From Escherichia coli (GTDB lineage: Bacteria > Pseudomonadota > Gammaproteobacteria > Enterobacterales > Enterobacteriaceae): a stretch of 64,000 nucleotides of DNA. The notes under the pieces were generated by a model, which did no database searches, was not told where the DNA came from, and worked only from the letters and a program-made list of their open reading frames with translations. Position numbers and translations under genes: made by a program. Location: the NCBI RefSeq assembly GCF_044324875.1, contig NZ_CP172185.1; one strand, given 5' to 3'. Shown here piece by piece: positions 24,641 to 28,142 of the stretch. Numbering within the stretch: position 1 is the first letter of the stretch; each line of letters opens with the position of its first letter.

Positions 24641-25322
24641 AACCGACATTCATAGCTTCACTGGATTCCCGGTATGAGTAACTTTTATTAACGATAAGCC
24701 AGGCTATTTGTGCATTGGTGTTGAGGTGAGAATAGCACCAGTCAGGTGAGCAGATTATAATGTTACGAGACTTAAGCACCTCTGTAGCTCCCATGGTCTG
24801 ATAGTTTCTCCCGTATACCGCTCATGCAACTCCCGCATTAAAATATACTGTTCCTTCCGGATAATTACGTTAAAATATACACCTGCGTGCATCTGTGTCA
24901 GACTCCGTTAGATACCAGCGTACATTGTAAACATGCCGGATGCACGCAATACAATAATCGGTCTTTTCGGAGTTATAGTCACCAGGCTGGCATCCCGTAA
25001 ATATGTATCAGGTAGCAATTCAGGAAGCGAACAAAAGCGCCTGGAGAAGGTTATCTCTGATAATAATTTACATGAAATGTCTCCTTTATTCTTCGCGAAT
25101 AAGGCCTTCAGTGTTCTCCCCTTTTCAGCAATTCTTACCGTAGTAATCACTCCTGCCTGTGTATAACACGAGAATTGCCAGAGTTTAACGTTTCGGTATC
25201 GTTATCCTGCATGATGTTGAACAGAACCGGGCGTGAATTCTGCGCCAGAATTTTCTTTCGAGGAACAGGTGATGCTGCCAACTTACTGATTTAGTGTATG
25301 ATGGTGTTTTTGAGGTGCTCCA

Positions 25323-25598
25323 GTGGCTTCTGTTTCTATCAGCTGTCCCTCCTGTTCAGCTACTGACGGGGTGGTGCGTAACGGCAAAAGCACCGCCGGA
25401 CATCAGCGCTATCTCTGCTCTCACTGCCGTAAAACATGGCAACTGCAGTTCACTTACACCGCTTCTCAACCCGGTACGCACCAGAAAATCATTGATATGG
25501 CCATGAATGGCGTTGGATGCCGGGCAACTGCCCGCATTATGGGCGTTGGCCTCAACACGATTTTACGTCACTTAAAAAACTCAGGCCGCAGTCGGTAA
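25323..25598 (+). CDS. insA: IS1 InsA
   Basis: ORF identical to 16040..16315. Confidence 0.85.
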
Positions 25599-26020
25599 CC
25601 TCGCGCATACAGCCGGGCAGTGACGTCATCGTCTGCGCGGAAATGGACGAACAGTGGGGCTATGTCGGGGCTAAATCGCGCCAGCGCTGGCTGTTTTACG
25701 CGTATGACAGGCTCCGGAAGACGGTTGTTGCGCACGTATTCGGTGAACGCACTATGGCGACGCTGGGGCGTCTTATGAGCCTGCTGTCACCCTTTGACGT
25801 GGTGATATGGATGACGGATGGCTGGCCACTGTATGAATCCCGCCTGAAGGGAAAGCTGCACGTAATCAGCAAGCGATATACGCAGCGAATTGAGCGGCAT
25901 AACCTGAATCTGAGGCAGCACCTGGCACGGCTGGGACGGAAGTCGCTGTCGTTCTCAAAATCGGTGGAGCTGCATGACAAAGTCATCGGGCATTATCTGA
26001 ACATAAAACACTATCAATAA
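25517..26020 (+). CDS. insB: IS1 InsB reading frame
   Basis: ORF identical to 16234..16737. Confidence 0.7.
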
Positions 26021-26412
26021 GTTGGAGTCATTACCCGAGGAACATTCCGGGTTATCTGTAGTACAGGAGGAGATTTTCTCCTATTTCAAATAAAATTCAA
26101 TGACAGGTGAATATTTAAATATAAATGCATCGCTTCAACAGAGAAATCGGAATTACGCCCGGAACCAGGCCTGAATGAATAATGGAGGAGGTAAAATAAT
26201 ATTATTGATGAAAATATCAAATTAAGTCCCCCTTCTCCTTCCCCAGCTTAAATATACTTACTTTTTCACTGGATAATATGTTATTGAATTACAAAGTTGA
26301 TCCTGATATACATGATTTCCGGCTCTTGCATCCAGTGATAACTTTATATACTCCTGCAAAGGCGAACTTCGTAAAAGTATACTTTTCTGTTGTAAGCATT
26401 GAGGTATCGAAT

Positions 26413-26637
26413 ATGAGTGAGAATACCGGAAAATCCCATGAAAATAAAATGGTTATTATTGACTGCGGGGAATATGATGAATACCTTCGTAACGCGTGGT
26501 TCCGAGGTTTTCGGGAAGGTTATGATATGGCGATGAAATTTGGATTAGGCTGCCAGCAATGTTATGAAACAGGTGAAAAAATAGCATGCGCAAGAGCTGA
26601 AGAATGCCGTAAAAAGATTAAGGTAATAAAACACTGA
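26413..26637 (+). CDS. Small hypothetical Cys-containing protein (74 aa)
   Basis: ATG at 26413 with GAGGT 7 nt upstream; MSENTGKSHENKMVIIDCGEYDEYLRNAWFRGF…; no recognisable family. Confidence 0.35.
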   Translation: MSENTGKSHENKMVIIDCGEYDEYLRNAWFRGFREGYDMAMKFGLGCQQCYETGEKIACARAEECRKKIKVIKH

Positions 26638-26765
26638 AACGGGCTGTCTGATATTTCTGTGAGCTAAAAAGACACCGTAATACAGGTATCTCACAGTAAC
26701 TGAAAGATATGCACATGCAGCCAGGGAAGATTAAGGGTAAGGGAGGATATCCCTTACCTGATTGA

Positions 26766-27290
26766 TTATGGGATGATACCACAGGCAATTCTTGCACCAC
26801 CGCCACCTAGAGGTTCAGGATGGTCATCATGATTATCACCTCCTGCGTGGAGCATTAGCGAACGGCCATCGAGCTCCTTTAATTCAGATAGTCTTGGCGC
26901 AAGCACCGGGTAGGTTGCTTTTCCGTCATGAGTGACATAAAGCGCAGGGAGATCACCCAGGTGGCCATCAGGAGACCATGGACCGAGATGCTTCCCTGTT
27001 TTTTCCGGGTCAAAGTGACCACCTGCAGATAAAGCAGCGACAGTTTTTCCATCTTTCAGGGCAGGAGCACAACTTGCGTTTTCATGTACATGAAAACCAT
27101 GAATGCCGGCGGGTAAGGAGTGAAGATCAGGGGTGAACAGCAGCCCGTAGGGTGTCTTCTGGATGGTTATTTTACCAATATTTCGCTCTTTTCCGTCACT
27201 ATCAACAAGATTCATTGTTACATCTTTGGTGGCTGCATATCCACAGGATGATGTAGCCAGAATCACAAAGGCAATAAGTTTACGTTTCAT
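26766..27290 (-). CDS. sodC: Periplasmic Cu,Zn superoxide dismutase, SodCI-like
   Basis: 174-aa ORF with signal peptide and the conserved GFHVHE…GGHFDP…GDLP…[10 protein letters not shown] motifs. Confidence 0.85.
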
Positions 27291-27429
27291 AAACCCTCTG
27301 TTAACAGGTTAAAGATTTACTCAATAACTGTTGCGAAATAACAGTCAGCCAGATGATAGCTTATGATAGTTATTGAATGTGACTATCAGTGTAATTAATT
27401 ATGCAAATTAGAAGGAATGTTATGTGTGA

Positions 27430-27600
27430 AGCGCCCCTGTATCCCGCTCATACTGGCTAACCCAGACACGCAGAGTCTGTGGCGTACAGCCAGCATTTGA
27501 GGCAATGGAACAAATTACCCCAATTGTGAATCATACTCATCCTGTTTACCTCTTTCTCAGGGAGTTTAGTCTCCAGGATTCCCGGAGCAGTTCAAAGTGC
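27430..27600 (-). repeat. IS629-like left-end fragment with internal deletions
   Basis: Near-identical to 3200..3446, including the terminal GGATTCCCGG(A/G)GC(A/G)GTTCA. Confidence 0.6.
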
Positions 27601-28142
27601 CCTGTGCTGCTTAAAGTGCCGCTGCATGCCACCACATGGCTGAGCAGCAACAGGTATTGTTGTTCCTTCATGTTGTTCACGCAACCAGCGTAATACCACC
27701 GGCGAGGATGGACTGTCAGTGTGATTACGTTCAGTAATACGTTCATAAAAGGAAGTTCAGAATGCATGAATCTGTTGTCCGTTGATGTTTCCTTCTGTCG
27801 AATTGTGTGTGAAGTGGACAATCAGAAAATGCGGCCAGTGATCCACTGCCTGTTGAATAAAACGCCGGATGTCTCCCGGCTCTGCAAGTAATGCTTCAGT
27901 TTCCTGCACTATTTTATCCCTGTTGAATTTTGTCAAACCGGTGCAGACACGCAGGAAAGTATGCCAGCACTGGTGTAATGCCAGTAACATACAATAAGAA
28001 TGAAATGACGAATCAGTCAGGAAAGGGTGCCCCCATTGGCAACCCATTGACTGAGCAGAGGATACAATCAGGAAGGTTAACGAGAGTATCTCCGACATCA
28101 GGGGCAGGATTGATTTCTACAATACCAGCGCCGGCATTGAGC

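Follow-up and report, generated by a model that had tools for sequence, protein, structure and literature searches.

Three unassigned intervals of an Escherichia coli virulence island as likely debris of insertion sequences and a decayed island gene

Our comparisons suggest, with a probability of roughly 0.88, that three unassigned intervals in a 64,000-nucleotide stretch of Escherichia coli DNA (the window) are non-functional debris, left behind in a chromosomal virulence island by repeated rounds of IS insertion, recombination and deletion. The intervals hold homologies to insertion sequences and to an island gene, junctions between elements, and inactivating lesions, and we infer that none of them is purposefully expressed. 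The island, which carries sitABCD, sodC and shiF-iucABCD-iutA and is dense in IS relics, is near-identical across dozens of sequenced genomes. The result is ordinary, and the IS3, hypothetical-gene and ISL3 remnants are already marked as pseudogenes in the RefSeq (PGAP) annotation of near-identical genomes. The analysis is of little consequence beyond tidying the map of an IS-rich virulence island. Three IS boundaries move: the IS3 relic now reaches ~24778 (24710 in PGAP), a scrap of the IS150 group, missing from the annotation, is added, and the ISL3 relic starts from ~46117 (46271 in PGAP).

Composition of the three intervals

In the arrangement we propose, interval 1 (24641-25267) consists of the head of an ISEc31-like IS3 relic, ~300 bp of matchless DNA and a ~190-nt IS150-group transposase scrap split by a recent IS1. 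Interval 2 (27601-28142) is the dead 5' half and upstream spacer of a prophage-type gene of the kind found in P4/CP4-type integrative islands, trimmed by an IS629-like element on one side and an IS256-family element on the other. Interval 3 (46012-46437) opens with a ~105-bp spacer past shiF and then enters a decayed ISEc38-like ISL3 element at its left end. The features are as follows:

24079-24778, minus strand: ISEc31-like IS3-family relic with left end, orfA and first part of orfB, from DNA homology
24779-25079: orphan stretch of ~300 bp with no relative outside the locus
25080-25267, resuming at 26045-26048 past IS1, minus strand: putative IS150-group (IS3 family) orfB fragment, from DNA and protein comparison
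25268-26035, plus strand: complete IS1A of 768 bp with InsA/InsB ORFs, read from the sequence
26049-26246: orphan stretch of ~200 bp separating the sodC module from the IS150-group fragment; not part of the three intervals, contiguous with interval 1 once IS1 is removed
26247-27426: sodC module, from DNA identity to Klebsiella, PGAP annotation and the codon-position pattern of substitutions
26413-26637, plus strand: 74-aa orphan ORF
26735-26759: terminator-like hairpin between the 74-aa ORF and sodC
26766-27290, minus strand: sodC, Cu,Zn superoxide dismutase (PGAP)
27432-27601, minus strand: left end resembling IS629/IS1203, whose inverted repeat tip at 27601 borders interval 2 on the left
27602-27909, minus strand: 5' relic of an island gene (~86 of 170 codons) with a GTG start; PGAP pseudogene at 27655-27909
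27910-28138, minus strand: upstream spacer of the island gene, colinear with positions 2791-3010 of locus L009
28139-28948, plus strand: IS256-family element, left end and 3'-truncated transposase gene, bordering interval 2 on the right; PGAP pseudogene at 28211-28948
46012-46116: spacer of ~105 bp after the stop of shiF (MFS transporter)
46117-47540, plus strand: ISEc38-like ISL3-family relic, degenerate left inverted repeat at ~46117-46162, then transposase gene

The initial annotation had located the intervals well. Their outer limits coincide with the last base ahead of IS1 (25267), the tip of the IS629-like left inverted repeat (27601), the point where the IS256-family left end begins (28138/28139) and the shiF stop (46011). 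Its statement that no ORF could be assigned also held: no family was found for any ORF in the intervals, Pfam and NCBIfam searches came back empty, and ORFs of at least 40 aa matched only themselves. By contrast, its claim that recognisable IS termini were absent, and with it the implied absence of IS interiors, has to be abandoned, since interval 1 includes sequence of ISEc31-like and IS150-group origin and interval 3 an ISEc38-like left end. Matches to known IS interiors, which it had named as evidence that would speak against it, exist for parts of these two intervals. Its suggestion that the intervals are relics of deleted genes proved right for interval 2, which retains the first 86 codons of an island gene for a 170-aa protein; intervals 1 and 3 are partly IS sequence instead.

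Interval 1 and its orphan stretches

The ISEc31-like relic supplies the first ~135 bp of interval 1. The relic is homologous to the orfA/orfB of an IS3-family element in both DNA and protein, its orfA peptide having been compared with ISEc31 OrfA, and ISEc31 positions 10-60, upstream of orfA included, align to window 24763-24715 with a score of 24.4 against a shuffle mean of 10.2 (sd 1.9; 0 of 500 shuffles as high). The ends of ISEc31 were set by its inverted repeats in locus L006, and the exact left tip of the relic would lie at 24763-24778; the outermost 9 nt (terminal 9-15 nt) of ISEc31 are not recognisable there, and the TG at ~24778 is only a candidate tip. The PGAP pseudogene for this relic spans 24079-24710.

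The same sequence accounts for an apparent RNA match. Window 24637-24719 (minus strand) aligns to the whole Rfam isrC model (RF01387) with 40 model positions missing, at 30.8 bits and hence below the gathering score of 39 bits. isrC is a Salmonella island sRNA between envF and msgA (PMC2330248). Intact ISEc31 scores 150 bits on this model, which corresponds to the ISEc31 orfA 5' region; the match therefore reflects IS homology and is no evidence of an sRNA gene. Rfam matches to isrC in enterobacteria can thus be mere 5' ends of ISEc31-type transposase genes.

At 25268-26035, IS1 shows the 768-bp length, insA/insB, terminal inverted repeats and 9-bp target duplication of the element, with >99% identity to annotated IS1A. 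It sits within the IS150-group fragment, flanked by the duplication cgaggaaca at 25259-25267 and 26036-26044. The 25268 site is empty of this IS1 in every locus compared and in 46 of the 47 genomes that contain the segment; the remaining one, GF4, has its IS1 at 24923.

The sequence interrupted by IS1 covers the region around the second catalytic Asp of an IS150-group orfB, with ~190 nt around an HSDRG motif. It shares 69% DNA identity over 172 columns with the IS3-family orfB at window 4851-5041, scoring 35 against a shuffle mean of 12.9 (sd 1.4, maximum 19.5), and pairwise BLASTP against IS3-family orfB gave 21 of 57 residues identical (E=1e-6). Besides, tblastn with protein P0024 returned 59% over 22 aa and a colinear second HSP. 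hhalign against a 25-member IS150-group profile aligned 52 columns at 40% identity (E=4.5e-4, with a probability of only 33%), and the stitched translation of 25080-26048 had no Pfam match to the integrase core rve (PF00665), significance being confined to targeted comparisons. On these grounds, 25080-26048 appears to be a fragment derived from an IS150-group gene, and it is not counted as a member element.

Possibly, though we consider it doubtful, the fragment is the core of something larger, namely a single heavily decayed IS150-group element that runs on the minus strand from 26246 to ~24826 once IS1 is taken out and sits head-to-tail with the ISEc31-like relic, in which case interval 1 would be fully accounted for. 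The geometry fits, as the core corresponds to codons ~64-127 of orfB, the 198-codon ORF at window 4660-5256, and the missing C-terminal part and IS end need ~270 nt, ending near 24826 and just short of the ISEc31-like left tip; by eye, the GRSDYY frame is followed by DN..F and YN..R motifs, arranged in the order of IS3-like elements. However, anchored DNA extension to either side of the core did no better than chance (z from -1.1 to +1.1), the IS150-group profile recovered the core alone in hmmsearch even with filters off, tblastn gave no further colinear HSPs, and the lack of an rve match also counts against a single element.

In the reading as debris, 24779-25079 is probably decayed IS or junction DNA, and the ~500 bp without any match would be decayed mobile-element or junction DNA too. 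Among E. coli genomes, plasmids and phages, 24779-25079 and 26049-26246 found matches at the same locus only; six-frame peptides of at least 22 aa (a chimeric query searched with phmmer against 1.84 billion representatives) matched only themselves at 80-100% identity, and Pfam, NCBIfam and Rfam held nothing for 24779-25079. An exact 24-mer from 24779-25079 and a second k-mer from 26049-26246 were both absent from GTDB species representatives. All nine metagenome contigs with 24779-25079 keep the same arrangement, none of them being an uninterrupted ancestral form, and ColV-type plasmids share the stretch up to 24997, where their copies end against IS1. No origin was found for 24779-25079 (~300 bp), 26049-26246 (~200 bp) and 46020-46116 (~100 bp), where debris is the reading we infer.

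The minus-strand frame 25201-24764, stop-free for up to 97 aa, was considered as a pseudogene; a search of 5.8 billion proteins gave only chimeric ORFs of the same locus, and this long frame of interval 1 is not a gene. In other strains, insertion sequences have entered the stretch between ~24760 and 26050 at least six separate times (three IS1 sites, two IS2 sites and one ISEc22 site), which argues that the stretch is dispensable. Because the copies compared all share 98.8% identity or more, conservation gives no means of testing for constraint. The remaining ~500 bp are an orphan, insertion-tolerant sink.

The possibility of small genes or RNAs, raised by the initial annotation, found no support: Rfam offered only the sub-threshold isrC match, the folding z-scores were unremarkable and no peptide had a homolog beyond the locus. 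Nor did any interval contain an RNA family at threshold, a conserved small ORF or an unusual structure. We regard a functional small RNA or small protein from an orphan stretch as very unlikely, for instance one that regulates the sodC module or sitABCD. Such a role might be suggested by the IS-associated Hfq-binding sRNA families of the island (isrN, STnc490 and the isrC-like sequence), by ORFs of 77-97 aa, and by the folding of the minus strand of 26049-26412, whose z-score of -2.4 (the others being -1.6, 0.2 and -0.4) is slightly better than shuffles. Yet no Rfam family reaches threshold, the isrC-like match is IS3 orfA sequence lacking ~40 nt, and none of the ORFs has a homolog beyond the locus among 5.8 or 1.84 billion proteins. 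IS1, IS2 and ISEc22 insertions are tolerated in other strains, and the sodC module of Klebsiella comes without any of the DNA left of 26247, where homology begins and the contig diverges. Promoter-like sites were at chance level; terminator-like sites exceeded expectation (6 against 2.3), and the strongest of them is the hairpin that separates the small ORF from sodC. More specifically, that 24779-25079 and 26049-26246 would be an unrecognised island-specific small RNA or micro-protein rather than decayed IS DNA, possibly linked to the sodC and 74-aa ORF module, strikes us as highly improbable. The structure prediction for the 74-aa ORF has a pLDDT of 44.

Intervals 2 and 3

Interval 2 is bordered on its left by the IS629-like end, with the terminal TGAACTGCTCCGGGAATCCTGGAGACTAAACTCCC read on the minus strand, and on its right by the IS256-family element, which shares 85% identity with a second IS256-family copy from window 48261 and meets the interval at junction 28138/28139. 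The gene relic in between is 76-81% identical in DNA to intact genes carried by many E. coli. Aligned with the copies of S30 and GPEC172, it shows an in-frame TGA, a 12-bp deletion, a 5-bp deletion and a 3' part cut by the IS629-like end; at the protein level, 64 of 86 aa (74%) are identical to the intact E. coli S30 copy (E=4e-45). In intact islands the spacer separates the island gene from an AlpA-type HTH gene, which is replaced here by the IS256-family element. The YagK/YfjJ label of this family stems only from the PGAP naming of WP_001167455.1: the relic and the intact 170- and 182-aa homologs match no Pfam or NCBIfam model at E<=0.1, YagK/YfjJ (Inovirus Gp2-like, PF11726) included, and BLASTP found no similarity between the family and the neighbouring inovirus-type Gp2 protein.

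One could argue that interval 2 is still a working gene, yielding a shortened protein from the GTG at 27909 to the TGA, in line with an uninterrupted 51-codon frame and an intact native upstream region. We deem this extremely unlikely, since the intact protein measures 170-182 aa while the relic has no ATG, runs into a premature TGA and is shortened by two deletions and a truncation; moreover, the AlpA-type regulator gene that precedes the island gene in intact islands is gone, and PGAP calls the relic a pseudogene.

In interval 3, homology to the plasmid shiF region stops at 46019, and 46012-46116 yielded no Rfam match and promoter and terminator counts at chance. Most of the interval is the first 320 bp of the ISEc38-like relic, which belongs to the ISL3 family by homology to the ISL3 transposase gene and by both terminal inverted repeats; PGAP lists a frameshifted ISL3 family transposase at 46271-47455.

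Comparison with intact relatives

ISEc31 positions 129-752 share 77-78% DNA identity with window 24699-24079 (621 nt); unlike ISEc31, the relic has an orfB cut at position 752 of 1258, contains frameshifts and a stop, and has lost ~40 nt where orfA begins. It is neither a copy of ISEc31 itself nor a functional element, as an intact orfAB with programmed -1 frameshift is absent. IS150-group OrfB of the InsK/InsO type (e.g. the relic at window 4352-5256) shares 37-59% aa identity with 25080-26048 in short colinear pieces, whereas the latter is a piece only, split by IS1 and with flanks lacking detectable similarity. ISEc38 is 84-85% identical to the ISL3 relic from window 46117/46140, left inverted repeat through transposase gene, and 92% at the right end; unlike ISEc38, with both of whose ends (in locus L005) the relic inverted repeat was compared, the relic has one deletion and four mismatches in that repeat, a 2-bp insertion, a 17-bp deletion and a 347-bp internal deletion. 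IS629/IS1203 (IS3 family) left ends in Stx phages and locus L014 match 27432-27601 at 82-93% in two pieces, spanning inverted repeat and orfA start, while the window retains a 170-bp stub with a ~60-70 bp internal deletion. The island gene family WP_001167442 / WP_001167455 (hypothetical and YagK/YfjJ domain-containing, respectively, in PGAP) sits past an AlpA-type HTH gene in P4/CP4-like islands of E. coli; the first 86 codons are 74% identical and the upstream spacer is colinear, whereas the copy in interval 2 is a pseudogene with stop, deletions and 3' truncation. Finally, the neighbouring sodC module has an 85% identical DNA counterpart at positions 232-1410 of Klebsiella contig L012.

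Island setting and content of the three intervals

The three intervals lie in an enterobacterial IS mosaic made up of a group II intron reverse transcriptase, IS3 fragments, IS1, sodC and IS256/IS200/IS110 fragments. By megablast, the 23400-29400 arrangement without IS1 was found on the chromosome of 47 of 5,426 complete E. coli genomes (99.8-99.9% identity); many of these strains came from poultry and some from human infections. In two carrier genomes, RefSeq annotates a chromosomal island with many transposase pseudogenes, sodC, sitABCD and shiF-iucABCD-iutA. With IS1 excised, the window shows 7 mismatches in 5,224 bases to NRZ14408, an E. 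coli strain with the same island. Besides, the group II intron reverse transcriptase ORF (21893-23416 (+)) is open in the window and in GF4, a further island strain, and carries an annotated internal stop in NRZ14408 and a third such strain, ECCNB12-2.

The outer limits that the initial annotation had drawn around the intervals were accurate, and its statement that they contain no assignable ORF holds. Its view that their content was unclassifiable stands for ~300 bp without detectable origin, whereas the content is otherwise mostly identifiable: it comprises two IS3-family relics, the left end of an ISL3 element and an island gene, now dead, along with the gene's spacer. Another 200 bp without detectable origin lie next door to interval 1, and a 100-bp spacer of this kind belongs to interval 3. 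As a finding this is ordinary, and RefSeq already marks most of it as pseudogenes.

Features in and around the intervals
24641-25267: interval 1
25268-26035: IS1, 768 bp, with the 9-bp direct repeat cgaggaaca at 25259-25267 and 26036-26044
26413-26637 (+): 74-aa ORF, sodC module
26735-26759: hairpin between the 74-aa ORF and sodC
26766-27290: sodC, sodC module
27601-28142: interval 2
46012-46437: interval 3

Within interval 1, distant blastn aligned 24079-24699 with ISEc31 (IS3 family) at 77-78% identity, and local alignment mapped this segment to ISEc31 positions 129-752 of 1,258. When scoring was relaxed, the part of ISEc31 that separates its left inverted repeat from orfA (positions 10-60) aligned with 24763-24715 (score 24.4; shuffles averaged 10.2, sd 1.9, and 0/500 scored as high). 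Thus, the relic reaches ~70 bp past the PGAP pseudogene end (24710) and ~135 bp into the interval; its outermost 9-15 nt could not be recognised. The second IS3-family relic is an orfB scrap of the IS150 group. The IS1-less stretch had one real match to the rest of the window in low-stringency blastn, namely 25097-25267 plus 26045-26048 (-) against 4851-5041, within an IS3-family orfB of that group. Smith-Waterman alignment gave 69% identity over 172 columns (score 35; shuffle mean 12.9, sd 1.4, max 19.5), and the stitched translation shared 21/57 identities with the partner orfB (E=1e-6). The alignment of this translation with a 25-member profile covered 52 columns with 40% identity (E=4.5e-4), but the hhalign probability was just 33%. 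The closest full-length relative matched at 59% over 22 aa, with a colinear second piece reaching 25080. Anchored extension to either side of the core did no better than chance (z from -1.1 to +1.1), a profile HMM search of the region found the core alone, and Pfam rve did not score the scrap.

At its left border (27601), interval 2 starts with the minus-strand tip of a left inverted repeat of IS629/IS1203 type; the stub at 27432-27601 resembles IS629 left ends at 82-93% identity in two pieces, with ~60-70 bp missing between them. Beyond it, 27637-28138 matched a gene and its upstream spacer from many E. coli islands (76-81% identity). In strains S30 and GPEC172, which have the gene intact, it encodes 170-182 aa and lies downstream of a gene for an AlpA-type HTH protein; an inovirus-type Gp2 (YagK/YfjJ) gene belongs to the same module. 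In a three-way alignment, the relic had GTG instead of ATG at the start codon (27909), TGT-to-TGA after codon 50, then a 12-bp and then a 5-bp deletion; similarity to the intact gene disappears shortly before the IS629-like tip. The corrected translation was identical to the S30 protein at 64/86 residues (E=4e-45), and 27910-28138 was colinear with the S30 spacer. The name 'YagK/YfjJ' for the relic's family is a PGAP label: intact homologs and relic had zero matches among Pfam and NCBIfam models, and BLASTP similarity between the S30 protein and its Gp2-type neighbour was not found. An IS256-family left end takes over at 28138/28139; a second copy, which begins at 48261, is 85% identical to it. 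An unannotated 105-nt copy of this end (28136-28240; 94% identity) also sits in the dadX-cvrA spacer of E. coli K-12 (L011 1501-1605), as a relic of an IS end standing alone in the core genome.

At interval 3, shiF (MFS transporter) ends at 46011, and plasmid shiF regions remain similar up to 46019. From 46117/46140 onward, the window matched ISEc38 (ISL3 family) at 84-85% identity. Comparison of both ends of intact ISEc38 yielded the inverted repeat ...GG(T/C)TCTTCCGCAAC(T/C)TGGGTGGA, from which the window copy (~46137-46162) differs by one deletion and four mismatches; further outer similarity starts at 46118. After the transposase start ATG (46210) come a 2-bp insertion and a 17-bp deletion, and the relic ends at ~47540, after a 347-bp internal deletion; the PGAP pseudogene annotation starts at 46271. 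The spacer 46012-46116 (~105 bp) had no Rfam match, and its signals were at chance level.

DNA without relatives and its repeated interruption

The 9-bp repeat flanks IS1; therefore, interval 1 joins 26045 onward directly in most strains. For 24779-25079 and 26049-26246, blastn searches of E. coli genomes, plasmids and phages (~65-70% sensitivity) found relatives at the same locus only. Two exact k-mers were not found among 100,044 species representatives, and in nine metagenome contigs with the k-mer the arrangement did not differ (98.8-100% identity). The six-frame peptides, down to a length of 22 aa, all retrieved only self ORFs (80-100% identity; phmmer, 1.84 billion representatives). A tempting frame on the minus strand has no stop for up to 97 aa, but among 5.8 billion proteins it matched only same-locus chimeric ORFs. 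Folding z-scores were unremarkable (-1.6 and 0.2 for 24779-25096; -0.4 and -2.4 for 26049-26412), promoter-like sites showed no excess over chance, and terminator-like sites numbered 6 versus 2.3 expected, the strongest being the hairpin that separates the 74-aa ORF from sodC. Nothing suggests a function in the intervals.

Insertions in other strains and plasmids
IS1 at 24923: strain GF4
ISEc22 at ~25267/26050: strain GF4
IS2 at 24963: comparison contig L008
IS2 at ~24762: comparison contig L024
IS1 at 24997: ColV-type plasmids

Counting the window's IS1 at 25267 and the plasmid IS1, at least six independent IS insertions across strains fall within ~500 bp (~24760-26050, IS1-less coordinates), the pattern expected for DNA under no constraint. 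This stretch is an insertion-tolerant sink or a local hotspot. ColV-type plasmids of E. coli and Klebsiella share 24055-24997 with the window (4408-5349 of the plasmid L004; 943 bp, 99% identity), that is, the IS3 relic plus 220 bp of unassigned DNA, which abuts IS1 on plasmids. Through this block, the island on the chromosome is tied to the sit/iuc virulence region of the plasmids.

On the other side, a Klebsiella pneumoniae contig matched 26247-27426 only (85% identity). The left edge of the sodC module is 26247 and therefore bounds the unassigned DNA. Resemblance to phage sodC is limited to sodC itself within the module (76% to Stx2a phages). The 74-aa ORF is a Cys-rich orphan convergent with sodC, with homologs in E. 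coli and Klebsiella only (5.8 billion proteins), and is indel-free in the Klebsiella contig (81% aa). Substitutions by codon position were 8/8/15 for this ORF and 10/4/45 for sodC; its DNA identity was 86% versus 77-78% for adjacent spacers, the sodC-upstream spacer likewise reaching 86%. A 119-aa extended form was not conserved, and the AlphaFold model of the 74-aa ORF was unusable (pLDDT 44).

Rfam matches and the isrC model

Elsewhere in the window, Rfam matches above gathering score were isrN, the ALIL pseudoknot (an IS3-family frameshift element), STnc490 and group II intron domains (6001-6143 (-), 2995-3111 (-), 29191-29312 (-) and 23420-23506 (+), in that order). Every one lies inside or beside mobile-element sequence; STnc490 adjoins an IS200/IS605 tnpA fragment and the intron domains an ltrA-type reverse transcriptase gene.

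The sole Rfam match in 24500-28300 was isrC at 24637-24719 (-), with 30.8 bits versus a gathering score of 39 and an alignment lacking 40 model positions. Rfam describes isrC (RF01387) as 'Hfq binding RNA'. Intact ISEc31 scored 150 bits across the full model (match at L006 2062-2184 (-)); therefore, the isrC model corresponds to the 5' end of an ISEc31-type orfA, and the window match reflects IS homology. The IsrC described from Salmonella lies between envF and msgA (PMC2330248); isrC matches in E. coli likely flag IS3 copies, not sRNA genes.
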